A DNA stretch of 32,000 bases from Dickeya dadantii NCPPB 898 (GTDB taxonomy: Bacteria > Pseudomonadota > Gammaproteobacteria > Enterobacterales > Enterobacteriaceae): NCBI RefSeq assembly GCF_000406145.1, contig NZ_CM001976.1, positions 927,260-959,259 on the forward strand, written 5' to 3'. This document shows, one piece after another, positions 9,857-27,961 of the stretch (positions are counted from its first letter, which is position 1; the number at the start of each line of letters is the position of its first letter). The position numbers and the translations under genes are program-made. The notes beneath the pieces were generated by a model. It searched no databases. It was not told the DNA's origin and was given only the letters and a program-made list of their open reading frames with translations.

Positions 9857-11020
9857 TCATGATGACAGTTGCCGTAACAGCGGAAAGGCGTCTTTCATGC
9901 GATCGCCACCCACGACGAACCCCCGCAGTTGCTCTCCTTCCATCCCTTTTGCCACTATTCCGCCACGATCGGCGATGGTGTGCCAGACCAGCTCCGGGTT
10001 CTGTGTTTCGCCAGCCAGCTGTAATGGAAACAGCGGGGTTTTCACCTTAATCAGCATTGCGGGTAGGGTGAGGGAACCGTTCCCTCCCCGTATCTGGTCA
10101 GCCGTATTACTGGTGCTGGTTATAATGCTGCTGGCAGCAATGTTGGCGGTTAGCTGAATCGGTTGCAAAAAGGGCAGCAGTTTGCCGTTGATTTCGGCGC
10201 AGTCGCCCAGTGCGTAAATATGCGGATCGGAGGTACGCATCTGACTGTCGGTAACGATGCCGCGATTCACCGTCAGACCGGCGGCAGTTGCCAGCGAGGT
10301 ATTGGCGCGCAATCCGATGGCGGAGATCACTTCGTCGACCTCCAGCGTGCGCCCGGACATCAACGTGACTTCCAGGCCGGCGTCGGTTTTCTCCAACCGC
10401 TGAAGTCCGCTATTGAGCATCAGCTCTACGCCTTGTCGCAGCAAGGCGTCTTGCAGCCGGGCGCTGATGTCGACGGGCAGCAGCGCGGAAAGGAGATGCG
10501 ATGCCCGATCCACCAGCGTGACGTGCTTGCTGGCCTGCGCCATATCCATCGCCAGTTCGCTGCCGATCAAACCCGCCCCCAGTATCAGAATGCGAGTCGC
10601 CTGCGTCAGACGTGTTTCCGCCCGGCGATATTCCTGTTGGCTGTTGAGCGTCAGCATCCACTCATGACCGGGAACCGGCGGTATCACGGCGCTGGCGCCC
10701 GTCGCCAGCACCAGTGTGTGATAATCATAGTGCCGGGTATCGCAGATAACCTGCCGTCGCCCGGCATCAATGCCGGTGACGGAGGTGTGCGCCAGCAGCG
10801 TAATCCGCTGTTCTTCGGCAAATTGCGCCGCGCTCATGCGCGTTAGATCGTCGGCGGGGCGATGCTGACTGATCACATGGCTCAGCTCCGGTTTGTTGTA
10901 TTCATCGCCGCTGTCGGCGGTGATCAGGCGAATCGGGCGTTGGGTATCCTGCTTACGCAGGTTTTTAATCAGTTGCCGGGCGGCGAAACCCGCCCCGATA
11001 ACAATGATGTCGTCAGACAT
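9857..11020 (-). CDS. norW: NADH:flavorubredoxin reductase
   Basis: 387 aa. IIVIGAGFAARQLIKNLRKQD...DEYNKPELSHVIS...YALGDCAEINGKLLPFLQPIQL is collinear with E. coli NorW. It lies 9 bp downstream of norV. Confidence 0.93.
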   Translation of the reverse strand: MSDDIIVIGAGFAARQLIKNLRKQDTQRPIRLITADSGDEYNKPELSHVISQHRPADDLTRMSAAQFAEEQRITLLAHTSVTGIDAGRRQVICDTRHYDYHTLVLATGASAVIPPVPGHEWMLTLNSQQEYRRAETRLTQATRILILGAGLIGSELAMDMAQASKHVTLVDRASHLLSALLPVDISARLQDALLRQGVELMLNSGLQRLEKTDAGLEVTLMSGRTLEVDEVISAIGLRANTSLATAAGLTVNRGIVTDSQMRTSDPHIYALGDCAEINGKLLPFLQPIQLTANIAASSIITSTSNTADQIRGGNGSLTLPAMLIKVKTPLFPLQLAGETQNPELVWHTIADRGGIVAKGMEGEQLRGFVVGGDRMKDAFPLLRQLSS

Positions 11021-11029
11021 GACCGCTCC

Positions 11030-12526
11030 TTAGTGGATGGGATTAAACACGTCTTTGCCTAAGCCGCATTCAGGGCACAGGAAACTGTCGGGCACATCAG
11101 ACCAGGGGGTGCCCGGCGTCACGTCCTGCATCGGTTCACCGATGGCGGGATCGTAAATCCACTGGCACACGCTGCACTGCATCCGGTCATTATCTTGCGA
11201 CGTTGACGCGCTGGTACAGGCGCAGGCAGATGGCGCCGCCATGATCGCCGGTGTTTCAGCCGTTTCGGCCGTTTTGGCGGTGTTGATAGCGGCGGCGTCG
11301 ATAGCGGCGGCAGGCGATACGGTTAACGGATGCAACGCCCACTGCCGGGCAATTTCACGGCCGTGTTCCCGGCAGATTGCCAGCGCGGATCCATCCGGAC
11401 GCCACTTGGTTTTCAGCGAAAGCGTGGTTTCAAAGCCGGCATCCATCAGCCGGGTCTGGATACGGTCAACCGCGCCGCCGTTCCAGCCGTAGCTGCCAAA
11501 GGCGGAGGCTTTCTTGTTCTGGAAACGCAGACCGGTGATTTCCTCCAGCATGGCGGCCACTTTCGGCATCATCACGTTATTCATGGTGGAAGAACCGACC
11601 AGTACGCCTTTGGAGCGGAACACCTGCGTCAGAATTTCGTTTTTATCGTGGCGGGCGACATTGTAGATTTTTACGGCGACACCCGGATCGACATCATGGA
11701 TCCCTTGCGCGATGGCGTCAGCCATCATGCGGGTATTGTTGGACATGGTGTCGTAGAACAGCGTGATGCGATCTTCCTGATAGCTGTCGGCCCAGCGCAA
11801 ATAGTGATGAATAATCTGCGCCGGGTCGTCGCGCCACACCACGCCGTGGGAGGTGGCGATCATCGACAGCGGCAGGTTAAACCCCAGCACTTCGTTGATC
11901 TTGGCGGTGACCAGGCGGCTGAACGGCGTCAGGATATTGGCGAAATAGCGCTGGCATTGTTCGAACAGTTCGCCCTGATCGACCTCATCATTGAACAGAT
12001 GCTCATCGCAGTAGTGCTGGCCGAAAGCGTCATTGCTGAACAGGACCGCGTCGCCGCTCATATAGGTCATCATGCTGTCAGGCCAGTGCAGCATCGGGGT
12101 TTCGATGAAGACCAGCTGTTTGCCGTTGCCGATATCCAGCGAATCGCCGGTTTTGACGGTGTGGAAATGCCATTCCGGATGATGGTGATGGCCGGTAATG
12201 GAGTCGATGGCGTTATGGGTGCAGTAGATCGGCGTCTCGGGGATGTGAGCCATCAGTTCGCTCAGCGCCCCGGCGTGGTCTTCTTCGGCATGGTTGATCA
12301 CGATGTAATCGATCTGCGCCAGATCGATCTCCGTCATCAGGTTCTGTACAAAATCACGACTGAACTTGTGGTCAACGGTGTCGATCAGCACCGTTTTTTC
12401 TTCCCGGATCAGGTAGCTATTATAGCTGCTGCCTTTCAGCGTTTTGTATTCGGTTCCGTGGAAATCGCGCACTTCCCAATCCCGCTGCCCGACCCAGTGA
12501 ATATTGTTTTTAACATGAATAGACAT
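11030..12526 (-). CDS. norV: Anaerobic nitric oxide reductase flavorubredoxin
   Basis: 498 aa. [42 protein letters not shown] (metallo-beta-lactamase-like diiron domain), a flavodoxin domain, and a C-terminal rubredoxin ([10 protein letters not shown]...[13 protein letters not shown]). Confidence 0.95.
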
Positions 12527-12569
12527 CGTAATACTCCAGTGAATGTAGTAAAGGTGGATGCGATGTCAT

Positions 12570-12585
12570 TGCATGAGCCGTGCCA
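12570..12585 (-). promoter_or_regulatory. Sigma-54 (-24/-12) promoter of norVW
   Basis: The minus strand reads TGGCACGGCTCATGCA (TGGCAC-N5-xTGCA), about 43 nt upstream of the norV ATG. A sigma-54 promoter is the expected architecture for NorR-dependent norV. Confidence 0.8.
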
Positions 12586-12628
12586 AATTTTATCTGTTTG
12601 ATTATTAAGTACTTTAAAAATACTCTTT

Positions 12629-12639
12629 GTCATTATGAC
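12629..12639. promoter_or_regulatory. NorR binding box (GT-N7-AC)
   Basis: GTCATTATGAC in the norR-norV intergenic region, upstream of the sigma-54 promoter. Confidence 0.6.
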
Positions 12640-12653
12640 AATAACTGAGTAAT

Positions 12654-12664
12654 GTCTTTTTGAC
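12654..12664. promoter_or_regulatory. NorR binding box (GT-N7-AC)
   Basis: GTCTTTTTGAC, 25 bp from the first box. Confidence 0.6.
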
Positions 12665-12688
12665 ACTCCTTTGTGAAAAAGACAGACC

Positions 12689-14215
12689 ATGCCGCTATCG
12701 ATAGATTCCTTTGCGCACATTGCCATTGAACTGCAACAAGGGCTTTCAACCCGGGACCGCTTTCAGCGCCTGCTCAATAGTTTGCGCCAGTTGCTGTGTT
12801 GCGATGCCGCTGCGTTGCTGTGTTATGAAAGCCAACTGCTGCGTCCGCTGGCGACCGATGGACTGGCGCCGGACGTGCTGGGGCGGCGTTTCCGGTTGTC
12901 CGAGCATCCCCGGCTGGAGGCGATAGCCCGGGCGGGCGATGTGGTGCGTTTCCCGGCGGACAGCCAGCTTCCCGATCCTTACGATGGCCTGATTCCCGGT
13001 CAGGAAGCGTTGAAAGTCCACGCCTGCGTCGGCCTGCCACTGTTTGCTCACCATACGCTGATCGGCGCGCTGACCATTGATGGGATGGACCCTCACCAGT
13101 TCGATCATTTCAGCGATGAGGAACTGCGGCTGATTGGCGCGATGGCGTCCGTTGCCTTGAGCAATGCGTTGCTGATGGAGCAACTGGAACGGCAAACGCT
13201 GGCGCCGCTGCCGGATGCCGCTCCGATGGCGGATGCGGAGGCTGACGAGATGGTGGGATTATCTGAGCCTATGCAGCAGCTGAAAAAAGAAGTGGCTATC
13301 GTGGCCGACAGCGATCTTAACGTGCTGATCATGGGGGAAACCGGGGTCGGCAAGGAGCTGGTGGCGCGGGCTATCCATCAGGGATCGCGGCGTGCGGGCC
13401 GCCCGCTGGTGTATCTGAACTGTGCCGCACTGCCGGAGTCGGTGGCGGAAAGCGAGCTGTTTGGTCACGTGAAAGGGGCGTTTACCGGCGCCATTCACCA
13501 CCGTACTGGCAAGTTCGAACTGGCGGACAACGGTACGCTGTTTCTGGATGAAATCGGCGAATTGTCGCTGACGTTACAGGCCAAACTGTTGCGGGTATTG
13601 CAGTACGGCGATTTGCAGCGCGTAGGCGACGACAGTAGCCTGAAAGTGGATGTGCGCGTGCTGGCGGCCACCAACCGGGATTTAAAACAGTCGGTACAGG
13701 AAGGCGCTTTCCGCGCCGACCTGTTCCATCGTCTGAGCGTGTTTCCGCTGTCGGTGCCGCCGCTGCGCGCGCGCGGTCAGGATATTGCCGTGCTGGCCGG
13801 TTTTTTCTGCGAGCGCAGCCGTGCCCGGTTGGGGTTGCAGCGGCTGGCGTTGTCGTCGGAGGCGACGCAGTTGCTGGCGAGCTATCCATGGCCGGGAAAT
13901 GTGCGCGAGCTGGAACATGTGATTTACCGGGCGACCATTGTGGCGCGGGCCGGTGGAACGACCGGCGATCTGACATTACGCCCGGAGCATTTGAATCTGG
14001 ATGGCGTTTTGCCTGACGAGCCTCATTCGGCCGCCGCCGATACCGTACCGCCGTGGCGTGGCGTCAGCCTGCGGGATGCGACGGATCAGTATCAACGGCA
14101 GGTGATTAGCGACACGTTGACGCGACATCAGGGCAACTGGTCATCTTGCGCCCGCGAGCTGGCGGTGGATAGCGGTAATTTGCACCGGATGGCAAAACGG
14201 CTGGGGATAAAATAA
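12689..14215 (+). CDS. norR: Sigma-54-dependent NO-responsive transcriptional activator NorR
   Basis: 508 aa. GAF domain ([32 protein letters not shown]), AAA+ domain ([15 protein letters not shown]...[15 protein letters not shown]) and a C-terminal HTH. Collinear with E. coli NorR. Confidence 0.95.
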
Positions 14216-14658: not shown

Positions 14659-16302
14659 TCAACCGCAGCGGGTGCAATTCTGCGACTGGATCACCTGGAA
14701 GAAGTCGTTGCCCTTGTCATCCACCAGGATGAAGGCCGGGAAGTCTTCTACTTCGATTTTCCAGATAGCTTCCATACCCAGCTCCGGGTATTCCACGCAT
14801 TCCAGGCTCTTGATGCTGTTTTGCGCCAGAATCGCCGCCGGGCCGCCGATGCTGCCGAGGTAGAAGCCGCCGTGTTTATGACAGGCGTCGGTCACCTGCT
14901 GGCTACGGTTGCCCTTTGCCAGCATGATCATGCTGCCGCCGTGGGATTGCAGCAGATCAACGTAGGAATCCATACGGCCGGCGGTGGTGGGGCCGAGTGA
15001 ACCGGAGGCGTAACCTTCCGGCGTTTTGGCCGGGCCGGCGTAGTAGATCGGGTGATCTTTCACGTATTGCGGCAGCTCGCCGCCGTTATCCAGCAGCTCT
15101 TTCAGCTTGGCGTGCGCAATGTCGCGCGCCACGATGATGGTGCCGTTGAGCGACAGACGGGTGGAAACCGGGTACTGCGACAGCGTTTTGAGAATATCGG
15201 CCATCGGGCGGTTCAGGTCGATGCGCACCACTTCGCCTTCGCCGGCCTGACGCAGGTGTTCCGGAATGTATTTGCCGGGGTTGGTTTCCAGCTGTTCCAG
15301 CCAGATACCCTGACGGTTAATCTTGGCCTTGATGTTGCGGTCCGCCGAGCAGGACACGCCCATGCCGATCGGGCAGGAAGCGCCGTGACGCGGCAGACGG
15401 ATCACACGTACATCGTGGGCGAAGTATTTGCCGCCGAACTGGGCGCCGAGCCCCAGATTGCGGGCTTCTTCCAGCAATTCCTGTTCCAGCGCCACATCGC
15501 GGAACGCCTGACCGTGCTCGTTGCCTTCGGTCGGCAGCTCGTCATAGTAGCGGGTGGAGGCCAGTTTGACGGTTTTCAGGTTGGTTTCCGCCGAGGTACC
15601 GCCGATGACGAACGCAATGTGGTACGGCGGGCAGGCCGCGGTGCCCAGCGTACGCATTTTTTCCACCAGATAGTTGGTCAGCTTACCCGGCGACAGCAGC
15701 GCTTTGGTTTCCTGATACAGGTAGGTCTTGTTGGCGGAACCGCCGCCTTTGGTGACGAACAGGAATTTGTATTCATCGCCTTCGGTGCTGTAGAGGTCGA
15801 TCTGCGCCGGCAGGTTGGTGCCGGTGTTGACCTCTTTGTACATGTCCAGCGCTGCGTTCTGAGAATAACGCAGGTTGTCTTCGATAAAGGTGTTGTACAC
15901 CCCGCGCGACAGCGCTTCGGCATCGTCGCCACCGGTCCACACGCGTTGGCCTTTTTTGCCGACGATGATGGCGGTGCCGGTGTCCTGACAGGTGGGCAGG
16001 ATGCCTTTGGCGGCGATTTCGGAGTTACGCAGGAACTGCAGCGCGACATAACGGTCGTTTTCGCTGGCTTCCGGGTCGAGCAGGATATCGGCGACCTGTT
16101 GCTGGTGGGAAGGGCGCAGCAGGAAAGAGGCATCGTGGAATGCCTGCTGGGCCAACAGCGTCAGCCCCTGCGGGTCGACTTTAAGAATATCCTGGCCTTC
16201 AAACTGGCTAACGGAAACAAAATCGCTGCTGATTAAACGATATTCGGTTTTATCCTTCGCTAATGGAAACGGATCTTGGTAATAGAACGGTTTATTCGAC
16301 AT
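14659..16302 (-). CDS. fumA: Class I (Fe-S, oxygen-labile) fumarate hydratase, FumA/FumB type
   Basis: 547 aa. [14 protein letters not shown]...[26 protein letters not shown]...[13 protein letters not shown]...[22 protein letters not shown] is collinear with E. coli FumA/FumB. Several positions ([21 protein letters not shown]) look more FumB-like from memory, so the paralog assignment is not secure. Confidence 0.93.
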
Positions 16303-20237: not shown

Positions 20238-20257
20238 GTCCCCCACGAGTGGGGGAC
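20238..20257. terminator. Hairpin between convergent alkB and the flavoprotein gene
   Basis: gtccccca-cgag-tgggggac, an 8-bp stem with no U tract. Confidence 0.45.
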
Positions 20258-20265
20258 GAAAGGCA

Positions 20266-21825
20266 TTACTTTTTGGTGAAGCGGAGATAATCGAGGGCGT
20301 TTTCTGCCGCCATGCGACCTGAGTTGAGGGCGAAGCCGAAGGTGCCGCCGCCCAGCAGCAGATCGTAGGTGTCGCCGTACATGCCGGCGGCGTCATTACC
20401 GGTGACGTACAGCCCCGGCACCGCATTGCCTGCCGGCGATATCGCTTCCATCTTCTCGTTGATCTTCACGCCGCCCAGTGTGCCGAGCGCGGCCGGCAGC
20501 ATTTTCACCGCGTAGAACGGGCCGGTTTTCATCGGGCGCAGGTAGTCCATGTTCTTGTTGAACACCTCGTCCCGTTTCTGTGCGGCGAAGCGGTTGTTTT
20601 CGTCAACGGTGTGTTTCAACACGCTGGCGTCGACGCCCATCTGTTTCGCCAGTTCGTCCAGCGTGGCGGCCTTGAACACAAAGCCGCGGTTTTTCTGGCT
20701 CTCTTTGGTGAACTCATCATCGAATTTCACCAGCTTGGTGTTGGCGATCACCCATTCGCCGATCGGCACATCGATGCCGTCGTTGACGAAGTGCTTGCGG
20801 GCGTCTTCGTCAAACACCGAATACATCACCCCACCGGCTTTAGCCAGCGCGTTGCCGGCGTGCGGCCAGATGATGACGATGGATTCGTCGGTGAAACGGC
20901 GGCCGTGTTGATCTATCCACAGATAAGGCTGACGAGCGGCGGCCAGCAACTGAGAGTTAGGCGCATAGTCCGGCAGGCCGGGGCGGTAGGACTGTACGAC
21001 GCCCATGCCTTCCTCTTTGGCCCCGGCTTTCCACGCCATTTTGATGCCGTCGCCGTCTTTACCGACGTTGCCCACCATGATGGTGTCCGGCACCGCCACG
21101 TATTTTTGCAGCATCTCCTTGTTGTTGGCGTAGCCGCCGGTGGCGATGATCACCGCTTTGGCGTCGATCTGGAACGGTTTGCCGTCGCTGCCTTCGGCGA
21201 TCACCCCGGCGACTTTGCCGTCCTTCATCACCAGATCTTTACCGGCGGTTTTCACCAGCGTGGTGACCTTCATATCTTTGAACTGCTCGTGGAAGGTTTT
21301 GATCAGGTGGCGGCCGTGGCCGGGGCCGTCGATCACGTGCCAGGTCAACATCCCGCCCGGTCCGCCGGGGCCGATGTATTCAAACTTGATGCCTTTGGAT
21401 TTGACCCACTCGATGGTGTCGGCGGAGCGGTTGACGAAGGCGCGCACCACAAACGGGTTCGCCATCCAGTGGCTGTATTCCATGATGGTTTTGAACGCCA
21501 TGTCCGGCGTCACCACGATGCCCTGACGTTTCTGCATGGTGCTGTTGGCGGCGAAAATGCCTTCGGCGAAGTTGCCGGTGCCGCCGACCACGCCCTGTTT
21601 TTCCAGCAACACCACGCTGGCGCCTTTCTCGGCCGCTGCCATGGTAGCGGCGGTGCCGGCCGCTCCCGCGCCGATGATCACCACGTCAGCGCTTTTGGGG
21701 AGCTCGACCGGTTTGGCCGGTTCGGCGCTTTTAGCCGGCTCGGCCGGCCCTGATGCCTGAACGGATGTGATCCCCAGAACCGAGAGGCACAAAGCCGCAA
21801 GGAGTTTTTTTCGGTATTGAACCAT
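20266..21825 (-). CDS. Sec-exported FAD-dependent oxidoreductase of the fumarate reductase / flavocytochrome c / KstD (FAD_binding_2) superfamily, without haem or FMN_bind domains
   Basis: 519 aa. Signal peptide MVQYRKKLLAALCLSVLGITSVQA, a PAEPAKSAEPAKPVELPK linker, dinucleotide fold DVVIIGAGAAGTAATMAAAEKGASVVLLEK, and C-terminal GLYVTGNDAAG...GGGTFGFALNSGRMAAE. Confidence 0.85.
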   Translation of the reverse strand: MVQYRKKLLAALCLSVLGITSVQASGPAEPAKSAEPAKPVELPKSADVVIIGAGAAGTAATMAAAEKGASVVLLEKQGVVGGTGNFAEGIFAANSTMQKRQGIVVTPDMAFKTIMEYSHWMANPFVVRAFVNRSADTIEWVKSKGIKFEYIGPGGPGGMLTWHVIDGPGHGRHLIKTFHEQFKDMKVTTLVKTAGKDLVMKDGKVAGVIAEGSDGKPFQIDAKAVIIATGGYANNKEMLQKYVAVPDTIMVGNVGKDGDGIKMAWKAGAKEEGMGVVQSYRPGLPDYAPNSQLLAAARQPYLWIDQHGRRFTDESIVIIWPHAGNALAKAGGVMYSVFDEDARKHFVNDGIDVPIGEWVIANTKLVKFDDEFTKESQKNRGFVFKAATLDELAKQMGVDASVLKHTVDENNRFAAQKRDEVFNKNMDYLRPMKTGPFYAVKMLPAALGTLGGVKINEKMEAISPAGNAVPGLYVTGNDAAGMYGDTYDLLLGGGTFGFALNSGRMAAENALDYLRFTKK

Positions 21826-21855
21826 ATTATTTTCCTTTTATTTTACGCGTGGAAT

Positions 21856-21878
21856 GACGCGCCAAACACCGGCGCGTC
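21856..21878 (-). other. Intercistronic hairpin between the FMN_bind and FAD subunit genes
   Basis: gacgcgcc-aaacacc-ggcgcgtc, an 8-bp GC stem in the 62-bp gap. No U tract follows it, and AAAGGAAAA plus the ATG of the FAD gene come next. Confidence 0.4.
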
Positions 21879-21887
21879 GCCCGGTAT

Positions 21888-22238
21888 TCATTTGGCTTTG
21901 GCTTGAGCGTAAGCCGCCTGAGATGCTTCATGCACCGCGCCGCTGGTCATGGTGGCGCCGGAGACACCGTCGACGTTGATGGTTTTTTTCTCGGTCATGG
22001 TTTTCGCCAGCTCTTTGGCGGCGTCCCCGCCTACTTCCGGGGTTTCATTGGGCGCATCGATAGTGGCTTTCTGCACCACCCCTTTGTCATCGATATCCAG
22101 AGTGACCGTCACATCACCGCCGATGCCTTGTCCGGTGGCCGAATAGGTTCCGGCTTTGAACTGACCCGCGTCTTCGGCGACGGCCGTTCCGGCGATCAGC
22201 AACAGGCAAGCCAATAATTTAATGGAATTTTTCTTCAT
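21888..22238 (-). CDS. Secreted small FMN-binding (FMN_bind) domain protein, predicted ApbE-flavinylated
   Basis: 116 aa. Signal peptide MKKNSIKLLACLLLIAGTAVA, then an FMN_bind fold with the flavinylation motif DGVSGATMTS. Confidence 0.8.
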   Translation of the reverse strand: MKKNSIKLLACLLLIAGTAVAEDAGQFKAGTYSATGQGIGGDVTVTLDIDDKGVVQKATIDAPNETPEVGGDAAKELAKTMTEKKTINVDGVSGATMTSGAVHEASQAAYAQAKAK

Positions 22239-22299
22239 AACGTGATTTCACTCTTTTGATTAACGGAATGTTGATTAATAAAAATATCCGGCTGCCCGG

Positions 22300-23679
22300 T
22301 CAGGGAGCGGGCGACAGTAATACGTTCCCGTCCTCGTGACCGAGATGACGAAACAGCAGGCAACTCAGCGCCAGTCCGACCCCGAGCAGCGCAAACAGCA
22401 GGCTGAACGGGCTGATGTGCAGCCACGGCGACAGGTGCGACAGCGCCCGCAGCGCCGGAAAGGTCAACGCCATGCTCAGCATCACCGCCAGCAGTTGGCT
22501 GAGCAGCAGGATGTTGTTGCCGCTGTTGCAGGTGTCGTGTTCCAGATGGCAGCAGGCGAGCGTGCTTTCCGCCGAGTGCAGCAGCGCCGTCAGCACGCCG
22601 AGCAGGCCGGACAGAGCGCCGATGCACGGCAGCGAGCGGTGCTGGATGGCGACACCGAGCGCCAGCACCGCGATCGCCGCCAGCAGCGTGGCGGCGATCA
22701 GCAACTGGCGGTAACCGGCGCGGCGCACCAGCGGTTCAAACAGCAGCTTGGCGAGCAAGGCGCCGGCGGAAAACAGCAGCATGATGATCCCGGCGGTAGC
22801 CGGCGTCAGACCCAGCGCGGTCTGGGTAACCAGTGAGATCACCACCGGGAGTGACGCCAGCAACAGTCTGGTCAGCACGCCGCCCCACACGCCGACATAA
22901 AAGGTGCGAATGCCGAACAGCGCGGCGGGCAGCAGCGCCTCGCGCGCCCGGCGATCGCCGCGCAGATACAGCCAGCCGCAGCCGCAGCCCGCCAGCGTAA
23001 TCAGTATCAACGCCGGTAGCGGCAGCAGGTGTTTGGGGGCGGCGACCAGCAGCAGCGCGAGCAATAACAGCGCGGTGGTCAGCGGCAGCAGGCTGCGCAG
23101 CGGAATATGGCGCGGCGACGGCGTGACGCCATCAGGAATGGCGTACCCGGTCAGCCACAGGCACAGCAACGACAGCGGAATCGGCGCGAGAAAAATCGCG
23201 CGCCAGCCGAAAGTATCGGTCAGCAGGCTACCCGCCAACGGGCCGGTCAGGGTGCCGAGCAGGCCGAGTAGCGTCATACGGTTAAGAAAAGACAGTTTCT
23301 GCGCGGGGGTGGTGACGCGCAGCGCCTGAGTGCGAAGCACCGGCAGCAACAACGCCCCGCCGATGCCTTGCAGGCAGCGACAAATCGCCAGCGCGGCGGC
23401 CGACGTGGCCTGGTTGCACAGCAGCGCGCCGGTGATGAACGTCAGCAGCGCCAACTGGCAGGTGCGTCGTTCCCCCATCCGCTGGCTCAGCCAGCTGTTG
23501 AGCGGGGTGAATGCCACCACGGCGACCAGATAAGCCATCACCACCGGCTCCATGCGCAGTACCGGCTCGCGCAGCGTATGCGCCATCGCCGGAACGGCGA
23601 CATACAGCATGGTGGTATCCAGCGATTGCATGAAGAACGCCACCGACGCCAGCCAGAATAACGCGCGCGAGCCGGCCAT
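22300..23679 (-). CDS. MFS transporter, DHA2 / MdtD-like (14-TMS type)
   Basis: 459 aa. FFMQSLDTTMLYVAVPAMA, LQGIGGALLLPV and NSGNNILLLSQLLAVMLSMA resemble E. coli MdtD. The ATG lies 2 nt after the nrfD stop (TGAtcATG). Confidence 0.85.
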   Translation of the reverse strand: MAGSRALFWLASVAFFMQSLDTTMLYVAVPAMAHTLREPVLRMEPVVMAYLVAVVAFTPLNSWLSQRMGERRTCQLALLTFITGALLCNQATSAAALAICRCLQGIGGALLLPVLRTQALRVTTPAQKLSFLNRMTLLGLLGTLTGPLAGSLLTDTFGWRAIFLAPIPLSLLCLWLTGYAIPDGVTPSPRHIPLRSLLPLTTALLLLALLLVAAPKHLLPLPALILITLAGCGCGWLYLRGDRRAREALLPAALFGIRTFYVGVWGGVLTRLLLASLPVVISLVTQTALGLTPATAGIIMLLFSAGALLAKLLFEPLVRRAGYRQLLIAATLLAAIAVLALGVAIQHRSLPCIGALSGLLGVLTALLHSAESTLACCHLEHDTCNSGNNILLLSQLLAVMLSMALTFPALRALSHLSPWLHISPFSLLFALLGVGLALSCLLFRHLGHEDGNVLLSPAP

Positions 23680-23681
23680 GA

Positions 23682-24638
23682 TCAGGCCACCGTCATCTGT
23701 CCGGCGTACAGCACGAACAGTCGCAGCAGGAATACGCCTAGTAGCGTCAGGCCGGCGGCGATCCGCGGCAGCGACGTGACATGGCGCCGCATGGCGGGCA
23801 GACTACCCGCCGCCAGCGGCACCAGCATGCCGATGCCGATAATACCGATCCAGAACACGCTGCCCCAGAATCCGCTCAGCGCCACCTGCGCCGCCACCGC
23901 TTTCTGCCCGCCGCCCAGCAGCAGGCCGATAAAGAAGGCGAACAGCAGGAACAGTTCGATCAGTGCGACCGGTTTTTCCAGTTTGTGCAGCAGATGCAGG
24001 GTCTGCGGGCAGTCACAATGGCTGCGCGCCGATGCGCCGACCATCATCAACACCGCGATGCCGGAGGTGACGCCGGACACCAGAAACAGCACCGGCAGCA
24101 CCGGGTTATTCAGCAACGGGAAGGATTTCAGCGCTGAAAGCAGAAAACCGGTATAACAGCCGAGCAGCAACGCCAGCACCAGCAGCAGATTTTCCACCGG
24201 ACGTATGCAGCGGGTTACCAGCACGATGACCCGGTTTAGCAAACCGTGCAGGGCACCCGGTAAATGGCGTTCGCTCCAGGCCAGCAACGGTTGCTGATAC
24301 AGGCTGGCAATCCAGAGGAACATCACCAGCATGTACACCTGAAACAGCATTACCCCCAGCGACATGATGGAATGGGGATTATAGAAAATCATCAGGTACC
24401 AGAAGGTGACAGGACGGGCGAGGTGGAAAATCAGGATCACCAGCCCGACTATCACCGACAGCGGCGCAACGATCGCCGTGGCGGTCATCAACGGGTTGGT
24501 GTGCTGATTCTCCGCGGGCAGGTAGCGGCGAAACAGCAGCGTCAGTACCATCATCCCGGATGAGATCCCCACCAGCAGCAGATAGACGGCGATCGGCCAG
24601 TCCCACACCAGCGAGTGAAAATGAAAGGCGTCATGCAT
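23682..24638 (-). CDS. nrfD: NrfD-family integral membrane quinol-interacting subunit
   Basis: 318 aa, the same length as E. coli NrfD. FHFHSLVWDWPIAVYLLLVGISSGM...CYTGFLLSALKSFPLLNNPVLPVLFLVSG...LRLFVLYAGQMTVA is collinear with NrfD. The start overlaps the nrfC stop (ATGCATGA). Confidence 0.9.
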   Translation of the reverse strand: MHDAFHFHSLVWDWPIAVYLLLVGISSGMMVLTLLFRRYLPAENQHTNPLMTATAIVAPLSVIVGLVILIFHLARPVTFWYLMIFYNPHSIMSLGVMLFQVYMLVMFLWIASLYQQPLLAWSERHLPGALHGLLNRVIVLVTRCIRPVENLLLVLALLLGCYTGFLLSALKSFPLLNNPVLPVLFLVSGVTSGIAVLMMVGASARSHCDCPQTLHLLHKLEKPVALIELFLLFAFFIGLLLGGGQKAVAAQVALSGFWGSVFWIGIIGIGMLVPLAAGSLPAMRRHVTSLPRIAAGLTLLGVFLLRLFVLYAGQMTVA

Positions 24639-25329
24639 GGTCGCTCTCTCCGTATTTACCGGGAATGCGGTAGAGGTTGGGGCCGGTGCCCAGATAAACT
24701 TTGCTGCGGTAGATCGGATTGCTTTTGATCATTTTCGAGATCTCGCTATCCGGATCGTTGAGATCGCCGAACACCAGCGCCTTGGTCGGGCAGATCTCGA
24801 CGCAGGCCGGTCTCTTGCCCGCCGCCAGATTGGTTTCCCGGCAGAAGTTGCACTTATCCGCCGTGTTGGTCACCGGGTTGATGAAGCGCACATGGTACGG
24901 GCAGGCGGCGATGCAGTAGCGGCAGCCGACGCAGCGCTTGTCGTTGACGTCGACAATGCCGGTCAGCGCGTCTTTGAACGAGGCGCCGGTCGGGCAAACG
25001 GAGACACAGGGCGGGTTATCACAGTGCTGGCAAGACTGACGAAAGAACTGTTTGATCGGTTTACTGCTGTCGGTGGCCGGGATATCGACGGTTTGTATGA
25101 TATCCAGCCGGGTGACGCCCTCCGGCACCTGATTGGTTTTGCGGCAGGCGGTCATGCAGGCTTTGCAGCCGATACAGCGTAGCTCGTTATGCAATATGCC
25201 GTATTTGACGGGGCGCGGGCCGGCGGCGGGCGTTGCCGTTTCCTGCGCGATCGCCGGCAAGCCGCTGCCGGAAACGGCCAGTGCGCTGCCCATAATGGCG
25301 ATAAAACGGCGTCGGGTGTAATTTTCCAT
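24631..25329 (-). CDS. nrfC: NrfC-type periplasmic 4x[4Fe-4S] ferredoxin subunit with Tat signal
   Basis: 232 aa. Twin-arginine signal MENYTRRRFIAIMGSALAVSG. Four Cys clusters: CIGCKACMTAC, CQHCDNPPCVSVCP, CVGCRYCIAACP and CNFCRE...CVEICP. Collinear with E. coli NrfC. Confidence 0.9.
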   Translation of the reverse strand: MENYTRRRFIAIMGSALAVSGSGLPAIAQETATPAAGPRPVKYGILHNELRCIGCKACMTACRKTNQVPEGVTRLDIIQTVDIPATDSSKPIKQFFRQSCQHCDNPPCVSVCPTGASFKDALTGIVDVNDKRCVGCRYCIAACPYHVRFINPVTNTADKCNFCRETNLAAGKRPACVEICPTKALVFGDLNDPDSEISKMIKSNPIYRSKVYLGTGPNLYRIPGKYGESDHA

Positions 25330-25376
25330 AAAATAACCTTTCAGAAATCGAAAATCGGCCTAGCGCAACCGATATC

Positions 25377-25452
25377 TGTTCAGCGATAACACTCGTGTTC
25401 AGTGATAAAGCTGTTTTTCAGTGATAGAACCATTTTTCAGTGATAAAGCTTT
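25377..25452. repeat. Four tandem 19-bp direct repeats (core TTCAGYGATAR) immediately upstream of nrfC; probable regulator-binding array
   Basis: Units tgttcagcgataacactcg / tgttcagtgataaagctgt / ttttcagtgatagaaccat / ttttcagtgataaagcttt. Cores start at 25379, 25398, 25417 and 25436, an exact 19-bp phase. The array lies 48-123 bp upstream of the nrfC ATG. Confidence 0.7.
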
Positions 25453-25801
25453 TTATTTTCTTACTCATGGGTATTAATGAGCGCGATAAATAACGACAAA
25501 GCCCGTGTGTCGGGAAATAAAATGTATTGGTGCGAATAATTGGAACATGCGTGCCTGGCGGGAGATGTGGCACGCCTCACATTTAATTTTTTGTATATCG
25601 GGATAAAAATAATTGCAAAAAACGATAACTGGCGCGGATAGTGTTATTATTGTCGAGACTTTTATTGTTAATGTTATTTTTGTTGTTTGTTTGTGTTATT
25701 AAAATGTCTTTTTTGATTTTTGTAATAAAACCCTTTTTTGGCCAAAATGAATAAAAATGATGTGGCGCAATAATGGATATTTCAGGTGAGTTATTTGGCC
25801 G

Positions 25802-25832
25802 GAAAATAAAAAACACCTCCAGCGAGGTGTTT
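25802..25832 (-). terminator. Rho-independent terminator of the esterase gene
   Basis: The minus strand reads aaacacctc-gctg-gaggtgttt followed by TTTTTATTTT, about 80 bp after the stop at 25910. Confidence 0.85.
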
Positions 25833-25909
25833 CAGATGTCTGACGAATCCTTTAAGTGCAACGCACAATACAACGCGGCTGTTGGTTAACAGCCACGAAC
25901 ACCAGCCAA

Positions 25910-26884
25910 TTATGGCTTCAACTGACGGTCCAGAAACTGAATCACTTTCTGCATGATTTCCGGTTGCAGCCAGTAAACGCCGCCATGCTCCGCGCCTTTC
26001 ACCACGTAATAGGTGCTGTCGATGCCGTGGGCTATCAGCGCCCGGTGCAGGATTTCGGTCTGACGGGGGGACACCAGCGTGTCGGCGCTGCCGTGCATGA
26101 TCAAAAACGGCGGGGTATGCTGGCCGATGTAGGTGATCGGGTTGGCGGCGGCGGTTTTCTCCGGGAAGCGGGTAATCGGGCCGCCGTCATTGAACACCGA
26201 GGTGCCGTTGACCCAAATGGCTTCGGTGGAGGACGGCGAGGCGTGTTTCTGCACCACTTCATCCGGGAAGCCTTCGCCGACGCGGGTCAGGTCCGACAGA
26301 CCGTAGAAATCGATCACCGCCTGTACCTGGCTGCTCTGGTCGAGGTGTTCGCCGCGGTCAAATTGCTTGTTGCCGTTGGTGGTGCCGGCAAACGCCGCCA
26401 GATAGCCGCCGGCGGAAGCGCCGAATACCGCCACATGACCGGCATCGATGCCGAATTTGCCCGCGTTGGCGCGCAGGTAACGAATGGCGGATTTCACGTC
26501 TTCCAGCGGTGCCGGGAACAGCACGGTCGGTGCCACGCGGTATTCCATGCTGGCTACCACGTAGCCGGCTTCCGCCAGTTTCAGCCGCTGCTGGATGTAA
26601 CTGTCTTTATTGGCGTTGATGAAGCCGCCGCCGGTGATAAACAACACGGCGGGCTGCGGTGATTTTGTTTCCGGCTGCAGAATGTCCATCTTCAATGCCA
26701 CGTTGGCATAACCGCGCATCGGCACCTGGGCGTAAACCACGTCGGAAATCAGTTTAACCGACGGCTGGCGCGGGGTCAGGGTCAGTTCATGAATGTTGTC
26801 TGCGGCCATGGCGCTGGTCACCTGTGCGGCTCCGGTAATCGTAACAGCGGACAACAGTAGCATTTTTAGCGGGAGGGTACGCAT
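25910..26884 (-). CDS. Secreted alpha/beta-hydrolase esterase (carbohydrate/feruloyl/acetyl-esterase-like fold)
   Basis: 324 aa. Signal peptide MRTLPLKMLLLSAVTITGAAQVTSAMA, oxyanion region VLFITGGGF, nucleophile elbow GASAGG, and a C-terminal HGSADTLV block carrying the Asp, with a His further on. Confidence 0.85.
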   Translation of the reverse strand: MRTLPLKMLLLSAVTITGAAQVTSAMAADNIHELTLTPRQPSVKLISDVVYAQVPMRGYANVALKMDILQPETKSPQPAVLFITGGGFINANKDSYIQQRLKLAEAGYVVASMEYRVAPTVLFPAPLEDVKSAIRYLRANAGKFGIDAGHVAVFGASAGGYLAAFAGTTNGNKQFDRGEHLDQSSQVQAVIDFYGLSDLTRVGEGFPDEVVQKHASPSSTEAIWVNGTSVFNDGGPITRFPEKTAAANPITYIGQHTPPFLIMHGSADTLVSPRQTEILHRALIAHGIDSTYYVVKGAEHGGVYWLQPEIMQKVIQFLDRQLKP

Positions 26885-27058: not shown

Positions 27059-27961
27059 ATGATAAGTATAAAGCGAGCACTCTATTACCATGAGCTGGTG
27101 CGTAAAGGGAGTTTTACCCGCGCGGCCAAATCACTCAATATCTCACAGGCGTTTCTCTCCCAGGAAATATCCCGGCTGGAGCAGGAACTGGAAAGGAAAC
27201 TGATTAACCGCACTACCCGGCAATTTGCGTTGACGCCATTCGGCGAAGCGTTTGACGAAAAAATAAAACCGTTGATTCGGGAATATTATGATGTCGAACA
27301 ATTTGTGCAATCGTACGAAGACAGTCAGGACGGTGCCCTAATGGTGGGGGTAATTCCGATCTTCAACCGGCTGAGATATTACGATGTCTTCACGCTGTTC
27401 CAAAAGCAGCATCCGAATATCGAACTGTCCTTTATTGATGGCGTCAGCAGCGACCTGCTGGAAAAGGTCAGAAACGCCGAGATCCACGTGTCGCTTTCCA
27501 CGCCGTTTGACGACTACCTACAGGATCCGCTGTTTAACCACACCATCTTTCTGGACGACAATCTGGTGGCGGTGATGGCGGCTGACCATCTGCTGGCGGA
27601 TCAACCGAGCCTGACGCTCAATCAACTGGCGCAGGAGCGGCCGATCGTGCCGCAGAAGGGCACCGGCGAACATGCGGCGGTGTCGGCGGCGTTCAGCCGC
27701 GCCGGGTTGGAAGACACCTGCTTTCGGGAGTGCAGCAATCTCGACATCATTATGGATCTGGTGATGCACCACGGCGGGGTGGTGTTTCTGTGTTCGTCGG
27801 TGGCAAACAGCCTGAAAGGGTACGATATCGTGATTCGCCCGGTGGCGACGCCGATCACCCGTACGTTTGCGGTCAGTTACCTTAAACGCAGCGCCGGTAT
27901 TCCGATGGTGCGCCGCTTTCTGGATTTTATGGAGCGGCATCATCCGATGCTGCGCGGATAA
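27059..27961 (+). CDS. LysR-family transcriptional regulator
   Basis: 300 aa. wHTH LYYHELVRKGSFTRAAKSLNISQAFLSQEISRLEQELERKLINRTTR followed by an LTTR effector domain. Divergent from the esterase gene. Confidence 0.88.
   Translation: MISIKRALYYHELVRKGSFTRAAKSLNISQAFLSQEISRLEQELERKLINRTTRQFALTPFGEAFDEKIKPLIREYYDVEQFVQSYEDSQDGALMVGVIPIFNRLRYYDVFTLFQKQHPNIELSFIDGVSSDLLEKVRNAEIHVSLSTPFDDYLQDPLFNHTIFLDDNLVAVMAADHLLADQPSLTLNQLAQERPIVPQKGTGEHAAVSAAFSRAGLEDTCFRECSNLDIIMDLVMHHGGVVFLCSSVANSLKGYDIVIRPVATPITRTFAVSYLKRSAGIPMVRRFLDFMERHHPMLRG

Follow-up and report, generated by a model that had tools for sequence, protein, structure and literature searches.

NrfCD beside an FMN_bind protein and a secreted flavoprotein in Dickeya dadantii: a candidate cytochrome-free, quinol-linked periplasmic reductase

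NrfD-type quinone modules serve molybdoenzymes and cytochromes. For the flavocytochrome reductases of Shewanella the quinol dehydrogenase is supplied separately as CymA, and the vinyl phenol reductase VprA of Lactiplantibacillus is cytoplasmic and NADH-linked. In UrdA of Shewanella, and in FrdA of Listeria with PplA/EetAB/Ndh2, an FMN_bind domain with the ApbE motif feeds an extracytosolic FAD_binding_2 domain, and the interchange of cytochrome and FMN_bind parts has been documented among fumarate-reductase-like enzymes (PMC8238504). The acrylate reductase ArdAB of Shewanella woodyi is built from a 52-kDa flavin adenine dinucleotide (FAD) subunit and a tetrahaem subunit (bioRxiv 10.1101/2024.02.11.579808). 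Here we analyse a stretch of 32,000 nucleotides of Dickeya dadantii NCPPB 898 (contig NZ_CM001976.1, positions 927,260 to 959,259 of the forward strand; "the window" below), the minus strand of which holds five consecutive, adjoining genes, nrfC-nrfD-MFS-FMN_bind-FAD_binding_2 (MFS, major facilitator superfamily). Two known kinds of system, an NrfCD module and a flavinylated fumarate-reductase-like enzyme, appear from their sequences to be combined in this locus in a way that we did not find described, and we think it probable, judging from the gene set, that its products make up a cytochrome-free, quinol-linked periplasmic reductase.

The five genes and the electron path they suggest

The genes lie as follows (coordinates are those of the window; aa, amino acids; Tat, twin-arginine translocation):

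24631-25329, minus strand: NrfC-like protein, 232 aa; Fer4_11 domain, Tat leader, four [4Fe-4S] cluster motifs; proposed periplasmic electron wire
23682-24638, minus strand: NrfD, 318 aa; PF03916 and TIGR03148; integral-membrane quinol-interacting subunit
22300-23679, minus strand: MFS transporter, 459 aa; MFS_1, a DHA2 offshoot resembling MdtD; candidate exporter of flavin (FAD)
21888-22238, minus strand: FMN_bind protein, 116 aa; PF04205, Sec leader; predicted ApbE flavinylation at Thr96; putative electron carrier
20266-21825, minus strand: FAD_binding_2 flavoprotein, 519 aa; PF00890, Sec leader; putative catalytic subunit

The genes are closely packed, with nrfC and nrfD overlapping by 8 nt, the MFS gene starting 2 nt after the nrfD stop, and gaps of 61 bp and then 62 bp before the FMN_bind and FAD_binding_2 genes; a consensus scan found no terminator-like site on the coding strand of the 61-bp gap. 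An earlier reading of this DNA, made by a model from the letters and a list of open reading frames (ORFs) and called here the sequence-only reading, had described these five genes, their spacings, the terminator-free gap, the Tat signal and four cysteine clusters of NrfC, the Sec signals of both flavoproteins and the flavinylation motif, and all of this was upheld by the ORF coordinates, the scan, Pfam and NCBIfam searches and the orthologues considered below. It had also called the nrfCD, MFS and flavin genes fused, which they are not, being adjacent. Its statement that nrfA, nrfB, molybdopterin and c-type cytochrome genes are missing held among the window's large ORFs scanned with Pfam, where no nrfA, nrfB, ccm, apbE, molybdoenzyme or c-type cytochrome gene was found.

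NrfD scored 407 bits against TIGR03148 (cut-off 347.6) and 280 bits against PF03916, and is a full-length polytopic membrane protein, 50% identical to E. coli NrfD over its 318 aa. The NrfC-like protein, 58% identical to E. coli NrfC, starts with a twin-arginine leader, TRRRFIA, and its 16 Cys fall into four cluster motifs; leader and Cys are kept in 22 of 22 orthologous loci with an intact nrfC (one extra Cys is present in loci L024 and L076); PGAP, the NCBI annotation pipeline, names these orthologues "4Fe-4S dicluster domain-containing protein". The Tat leader, the 16 Cys, the nrfC-nrfD overlap and the gene order are shared with E. coli NrfABCD. In contrast to the E. coli nrfABCDEFG set, NrfA, NrfB and NrfEFG are absent here, the periplasmic partner is a predicted flavinylated protein together with a flavoenzyme, and NrfC falls below its family cut-off and in a separate clade. 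We found no nrfA or nrfB within ~8 kb in those related loci that had gene or Pfam calls, and in no locus of the same architecture (type 1 below) does a multihaem ORF (at least 2 CxxCH, at least 45 aa), and with it a cytochrome domain or partner of the Fcc3 type, lie within 5 kb of the flavoprotein gene. Babujee et al. reported that nrf, nap and part of ccm are missing from D. dadantii, whereas Pectobacterium has a genuine nrf operon besides its copy in the present cluster (PMC3349551). On this account a haem-free wire makes sense, and the nrfCD genes are orphans in Dickeya, with no nrfAB(EFG) set for them to serve either in the window or, from that report, in the species. A further NrfCD module without nitrite reductase was observed in Shewanella algae (locus L095, 7527-9935), where genes for an NrfB-like cytochrome, NrfC, NrfD and a 96-aa cytochrome c3 stand together with no nrfA nearby.

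The FMN_bind protein scored 50.7 bits against PF04205, and its motif DGVSGATMTS is of the ApbE type (D-x-x-[ST]-G-A-[ST]), kept as D-G-x-[ST]-G-A-[TS] in 24 of 24 loci. Its leader has no Tat motif and is predicted to direct the protein out of the cytosol, with an AxA cleavage site conserved across orthologues. A lipoprotein reading of the leader (LLAC) was rejected, the Cys not being conserved; the conserved AxA and the non-conserved Cys mark a signal peptidase I substrate rather than a lipoprotein. The likeness to UrdA and Listeria FrdA is that of an ApbE-motif FMN_bind part feeding an extracytosolic FAD_binding_2 part, and the differences are that the membrane donor would here be an Fe-S/NrfD module and that FMN_bind is a separate polypeptide.

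The flavoprotein has the FAD_binding_2 fold (PF00890, 210 bits). Its best NCBIfam model was vinyl phenol reductase VprA (NF053717; 402.4 bits, below the cut-off of 600), a model that also led for the catalytic domains of the two kinds of cluster and for the orthologues with cytochrome partners described below; flavocytochrome c (TIGR01813) gave 223.6 bits, below its cut-off of 285.45. In a Foldseek search with its AF2 model (mean confidence, pLDDT, 84) the closest folds were UrdA (6t86, template modelling (TM) score 0.73/0.83), the best structural match, Fcc3 and KstD. Its leader is Sec-type, without a Tat motif, and is Sec-type across its clade, in contrast to the Tat-type leader of ArdA; the export signals of both flavoproteins were conserved in all orthologues, which argues against a cytoplasmic location. 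As in ArdAB and the fused FccA/Fcc3, a periplasmic FAD_binding_2 subunit of ~52 kDa goes with a gene for a small electron-transfer subunit of ~12 kDa. The present system differs from these in that the small partner is FMN_bind and not a cytochrome, that the leader is Sec-type, that carboxylate-binding and proton-donor residues are not conserved, and that the quinol dehydrogenase NrfCD is encoded within the operon.

These components suggest a path in which NrfD would oxidise (demethyl)menaquinol in the inner membrane and pass electrons to the four [4Fe-4S] clusters of the Tat-exported NrfC. NrfC would in turn reduce the small soluble periplasmic FMN_bind protein, on which ApbE would have fixed flavin mononucleotide (FMN) covalently (predicted at Thr96); from this carrier electrons would move to the non-covalent FAD of the Sec-exported flavoprotein of the fumarate reductase superfamily, and this enzyme would reduce a C=C bond of an organic acceptor. 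Gene linkage, cofactor motifs and topology signals can be read directly from the sequences, whereas we infer that NrfC physically meets the flavin protein, that electrons run this way, that the carrier is flavinylated and that energy is coupled. If true, it would be a new route from the quinone pool to periplasmic flavoenzymes, and would mean that a lineage without cytochrome c maturation keeps a periplasmic respiratory reductase. It raises the questions of how FAD reaches the periplasm in enterobacteria, for which the MFS protein is a candidate, and of which plant-derived acceptor Dickeya and Pectobacterium use in anaerobic tuber rot; with five genes in genetically tractable hosts, each step is open to direct testing.

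In the literature searched, no description of such a system was found for NrfC or NrfD with flavinylation, flavin reductase, Dickeya or Pectobacterium, no paper linked NrfCD to flavinylated reductases, and none brought Dickeya together with nrfC or nrfD. A 2021 review of the NrfD family does not mention flavin, FAD or FMN, the flavinylation surveys searched (including PMC8238504) nowhere mention Nrf, Fer4 or Fe-S cluster, and the text supplements of the eLife flavinylation survey have no Dickeya, Pectobacterium or NrfD entries. The only Pectobacterium matches in the literature searched were an incidental co-mention in a moss metatranscriptome paper and, in a list of genes from machine learning, an entry "putative component of polysulfide reductase".

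Conservation of the unit and a second architecture

Two flanking genes recur with the cluster and are needed for its comparison:

27059-27961, plus strand: LysR-type regulator; Pfam HTH_1 and LysR_substrate; divergent from the esterase/nrfC side
25910-26884, minus strand: secreted alpha/beta-hydrolase esterase of the BD-FAE family; Pfam BD-FAE 182 bits, signal-like N-terminal leader

A conservation scan with one genome per species, in which loci were classified by script, found the LysR gene and the five genes in Dickeya, 13 Pectobacterium species, Brenneria, Symbiopectobacterium and Edaphovirga, giving ~24 species-level genomes in five genera; nrfCD and the flavin genes do co-occur in related genomes. 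In these type-1 clusters the upstream neighbour is usually the esterase gene and the downstream one alkB. Locus L087, from a metagenomic relative at 74% identity, carries LysR and the five genes between unrelated flanks, by which the six genes are marked as a mobile, conserved unit. A LysR homologue (254-630 bits) is divergent upstream in all but two type-1 loci, one of them cut off at a contig end, and probably controls the unit. The esterase is present in most type-1 loci and absent in L017, L024 and L087; in the first two of these LysR directly adjoins nrfC. The sequence-only reading had seen only AT-rich non-coding DNA upstream, and needs correction here, as beyond the 580-bp spacer the esterase and divergent LysR genes travel with the cluster.

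Some copies are fragmented or split. In Symbiopectobacterium the NrfC, NrfD, MFS, FAD and esterase genes (L026) or the FAD, MFS and esterase genes (L076) are fragmented, both genomes being those of insect symbionts, and only the FAD gene is split in Pectobacterium sp. PL152 (L044) and only the MFS gene in Edaphovirga (L024). These fragmented genes may be pseudogenes or assembly errors.

Outside this lineage, orthologues of the flavoprotein (46-59% identity) were found in Shewanella, Geomonas/Geobacteraceae, Deferribacterales, Desulfopila, Propionivibrio and others, where the directly adjoining gene encodes a tetrahaem cytochrome c of 113-124 aa, with four CxxCH motifs. By this comparison of sequences the 116-aa FMN_bind gene occupies the position of the tetrahaem cytochrome gene in the orthologous systems, in keeping with the documented interchange of such parts (PMC8238504), which lends comparative support to the earlier proposal that an Fe-S/NrfD module has replaced a cytochrome donor. 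Among 69 neighbours of the cytochrome-linked orthologues were 19 MFS genes, of other subfamilies, and 13 OprD porins, and some flavoprotein relatives stand alone beside an OprD-type porin gene. Stand-alone secreted paralogues (46-58% identity) with no donor gene nearby were also observed in Brenneria (L031, L045, L051, L052, L054), Acerihabitans (L030) and Sutterella and relatives (L077-L084), often adjoining an OprD-like porin gene; these might take their electrons from a common donor, for instance the NrfCD/FMN_bind module.

A second architecture (type 2) was reached through NrfC homologues of 61-65% identity that are not named NrfC by NCBI. In Acerihabitans (L094) the order is NrfC-NrfD-MFS followed by a fused FMN_bind-FAD_binding_2 reductase, and Musicola (L093) and Brenneria uluponensis (L176) have the same gene set with an OprB porin and a sigma-54 activator; the fused reductase is 628-636 aa long, and no description of the type-2 cluster was found in the literature. 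Between the two types the identity is 62% for NrfC, 49% for NrfD, 40% for the MFS protein over its full length and 54% for FMN_bind (our 116-aa protein against the N-terminal domain of the Acerihabitans fusion), and only 32-35% for the FAD domain. Neighbour joining places type-1 and type-2 NrfC together in a single clade (97 of 100 bootstraps) within gammaproteobacterial NrfC, sister to the canonical NrfC of Enterobacterales and Pasteurellales; the module descends from a genuine NrfCD. More distant FMN_bind relatives (39-46% identity) do not adjoin NrfCD, and do not extend the pairing beyond the lineage. On these identities the system looks like a mosaic, with a donor module NrfC-NrfD-MFS-FMN_bind shared with type 2 and a catalytic subunit from the split flavocytochrome c clade. 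In the simplest history a duplicated NrfCD would have been recruited once, for a flavinylated reductase, setting up the donor module NrfC-NrfD-MFS-FMN_bind, after which in type 1 the catalytic domain would have been replaced by a flavocytochrome-type FAD subunit, leaving FMN_bind as a separate gene.

The esterase scored 182 bits against BD-FAE (PF20434, cut-off 26.8), a member of the feruloyl/acetyl-xylan esterase family, and its closest solved structures are 6nkf (a metagenomic esterase), 6mly (a bifunctional GH43-CE) and 6xyc/6tkx (acetyl-xylan/carbohydrate esterases). As a separate observation, tannase/feruloyl-esterase family genes (PF07519) lie just downstream of cytochrome-c3/flavoprotein/OprD genes in Shewanella avicenniae (L003, 11648-15697) and in L027, where genes of a phenolic-ester hydrolase family and of the reductase clade have come together independently.

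Direction of flow, transporter and substrate

Several findings weigh against a quinol-linked reductase. The NrfC-like protein scored 330.4 bits against TIGR03149, under the equivalog cut-off of 377.6. No documented case of a periplasmic Fe-S protein donating to an FMN_bind domain and no transcriptome mention of these five genes were found in the literature, and an FNR-like box (TTGAT-N4-ATCAA, up to 2 mismatches) was not found in the spacer 25330-25909. In a HMMER alignment, least certain around R402, the Fcc3 residues H365, R402, H504 and R544/545 correspond to Y280, I318, L447 and L490, which leaves the chemistry uncertain, and 3-ketosteroid and cyclohexanone dehydrogenases match the flavoprotein model as well as reductases do (TM about 0.72-0.74), which bears on the direction of flow. 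These last two points, the equal structural matches and the missing Fcc3 proton-donor Arg, would suit a system run in reverse, with a KstD-like periplasmic dehydrogenase or desaturase oxidising a saturated substrate and electrons passing through FMN and NrfC to an NrfD that reduces quinone, as in the quinone reductase complex Qrc and alternative complex III (ACIII); NrfD-like modules run both ways in different complexes (PMC8076601). Against this, the orthologues partnered with cytochrome c3 belong to anaerobic respirers (Geomonas, Deferribacterales, Desulfopila, Denitrovibrio) and have the architecture of the ArdAB/Fcc reductases, the best family score is that of the reductase VprA, and the parent NrfCD is a quinol dehydrogenase, and we consider reverse flow improbable. 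A coincidental or vestigial neighbourhood, in which NrfCD would be a remnant of a decayed nrf operon or serve another partner while the flavoprotein took its electrons from elsewhere, appears very improbable indeed: stand-alone paralogues of the flavoprotein without a nearby donor gene in Brenneria, Acerihabitans, Shewanella and Sutterella, and the low NrfC score, would fit it, but the cofactor ligands are all intact in ~24 genomes, the genes overlap or abut, the unit is found again between other flanks and in the type-2 arrangement, the NrfC of both types forms a clade of its own, and Pectobacterium keeps this copy alongside a genuine nrf operon.

For the transporter, MFS_1 passed with 110 bits, and the scores for MdtD (182.9 bits, cut-off 426) and for the DHA2 model TIGR00711 (98.5 bits, cut-off 230) were both below threshold. 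The gene always lies inside the operon, abutting nrfD, its product is 40% and 34% identical to MFS proteins of type-2 clusters, and it is kept with the donor module across clusters with differing catalytic domains; it most likely supports the donor module itself. The Sec-type leader of the flavoprotein means that FAD must be acquired in the periplasm, and ApbE needs FAD there also. Export of FAD into the periplasm is the candidate role that we prefer on this analysis, tentatively and with other roles in mind; we know of no MdtD-like protein for which flavin transport has been shown. The proposed job, periplasmic FAD for Sec-exported flavoenzymes, would be analogous to that of Bfe, the dedicated inner-membrane FAD exporter of Shewanella (PMC3551548), and would here fall to an MFS/DHA2 protein in contrast to Bfe, which belongs to the multidrug and toxic compound extrusion (MATE) superfamily. 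The sequence-only reading had offered the movement of flavin by this protein as pure speculation; it now stands among the better-supported candidate readings. Speaking against FAD export, the best match is the MdtD-like family of drug and metabolite efflux, the gene is split into two ORFs in Edaphovirga (L024), and the catalytic domains of both types best match VprA, by which a role tied to a shared substrate class becomes possible. In a metagenome scan with the MFS alignment, linkage to NrfCD was found only in the two closest groups (L096/L097 and L098), and the 77 MdtD-like relatives (at most 36% identity) had unrelated neighbours and no NrfCD or flavin genes, so that the family name says little on substrate. 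With the complex working as proposed, the MFS protein could instead serve the substrate, exporting a toxic cytoplasmic phenolic or vinylphenol for periplasmic reduction or importing the reduced product, as would accord with its DHA2/MdtD-like efflux type, with the recurrence of MFS genes (of other subfamilies) and OprD porins near the cytochrome-linked orthologues (19 and 13 of the 69 neighbours) and with the shared VprA match. We hold such a role to be plausible but less likely, as the MFS protein co-varies with NrfCD and FMN_bind (40% identity between types) while the catalytic domains are at 32-35%, and as a periplasmic reductase has no need of substrate uptake, whereas Sec export creates a demand for periplasmic FAD.

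Membership among the fumarate, urocanate and acrylate reductases, an assignment suggested by the sequence-only reading, was rejected, with binding and catalytic residues missing and curated scores below cut-off; as far as the aligned residues tell, the active site is not of the fumarate, urocanate or acrylate type. The residues invariant in the clade include L447, Arg281, Tyr483, Asp485, Tyr487 and Asp488. VprA is the best-scoring curated family over the full length, and missing fumarate-type basic residues would fit a non-dicarboxylate substrate; our protein differs from VprA in a score well under the 600-bit cut-off, in its export leader and in its proposed donor, quinol via NrfCD. The arginines are also missing in 3 of 4 cinnamate-reductase clades of gut bacteria, and for this reason cinnamates remain compatible with the active site. 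Our guess is that the substrate is a plant phenylpropanoid alkene of the hydroxycinnamate or vinylphenol type, on hints (the VprA score, the esterase family and the tannase neighbours) that are weak; no report of hydroxycinnamate or vinylphenol reduction by Dickeya or Pectobacterium was found in the literature. In its fullest form the proposal would be that soft-rot Pectobacteriaceae have a cytochrome-free periplasmic respiratory branch from menaquinol through NrfD, NrfC and a flavinylated carrier to the FAD enzyme, that the MFS protein is the first MFS-type FAD exporter, and that respiration or detoxification of phenylpropanoids in anoxic rot, the hydroxycinnamates or vinylphenols being released by the adjacent secreted esterase, is a fitness factor in soft rot. 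Taken all together, this combination is unlikely.

Transcription signals and the rest of the window

Three further features bound or precede the operon:

25810-25897, minus strand: two terminator-like hairpins directly 3' of the esterase stop (25897-25874, and 25833-25810 followed by a T-run)
25330-25809, minus strand: AT-rich spacer (GC 0.46), presumed promoter/operator region of the nrfC operon
20240-20255, minus strand: GC-rich hairpin CCCCCAC-TC-GTGGGGG where the FAD and alkB genes converge, seen on inspection of the sequence

The hairpins at 25810-25897 would, from their position and form, part the esterase transcript from that of the nrfC operon, and the hairpin at 20240-20255, which lies outside the output of the consensus terminator scan, is a probable operon end. 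Within the operon, the 62-bp gap between the FMN_bind and FAD genes (21826-21887) holds a GC-rich hairpin, ACCGGGCGACGCGCCGGT, without a T-run, and this may be an element of mRNA stability or processing, or a partial attenuator.

The AT-rich spacer upstream of nrfC, 580 bp in all to the esterase gene, contains an exact direct repeat with a 19-bp period in 4 copies (TATCACTGAAAA / TATCACTGAAAA / TATCACTGAACA / TATCGCTGAACA) at ~25370-25449, or -116 to about -41 from the nrfC ATG. One copy was found in D. undicola and 0 in D. oryzae, Pectobacterium and Brenneria. An operator array was therefore rejected in favour of a strain-specific tandem expansion, the repeat being single in D. undicola and missing from the other genera; such an expansion in the promoter region could have altered expression.

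A megablast search of the 5-kb region matched neither E. coli genomes nor the plasmid collection, so that the cluster is absent from E. coli and nothing similar is present in that collection. The cluster's proteins are 95% identical to Dickeya proteins, with the FMN_bind subunit closest to that of D. dianthicola. The rest of the window holds housekeeping genes (ptsI, cysK, cysZ, zipA, ribB, norVW, fumarase and alkB). Among these, genes of anaerobic or nitric oxide stress metabolism lie ~5-10 kb from the cluster: the region 9857-14215 holds norW, norV (flavorubredoxin) and a divergent 508-aa ORF (12689-14215) at the position of the sigma-54 activator norR, and a class I fumarase is encoded at 14659-16302.

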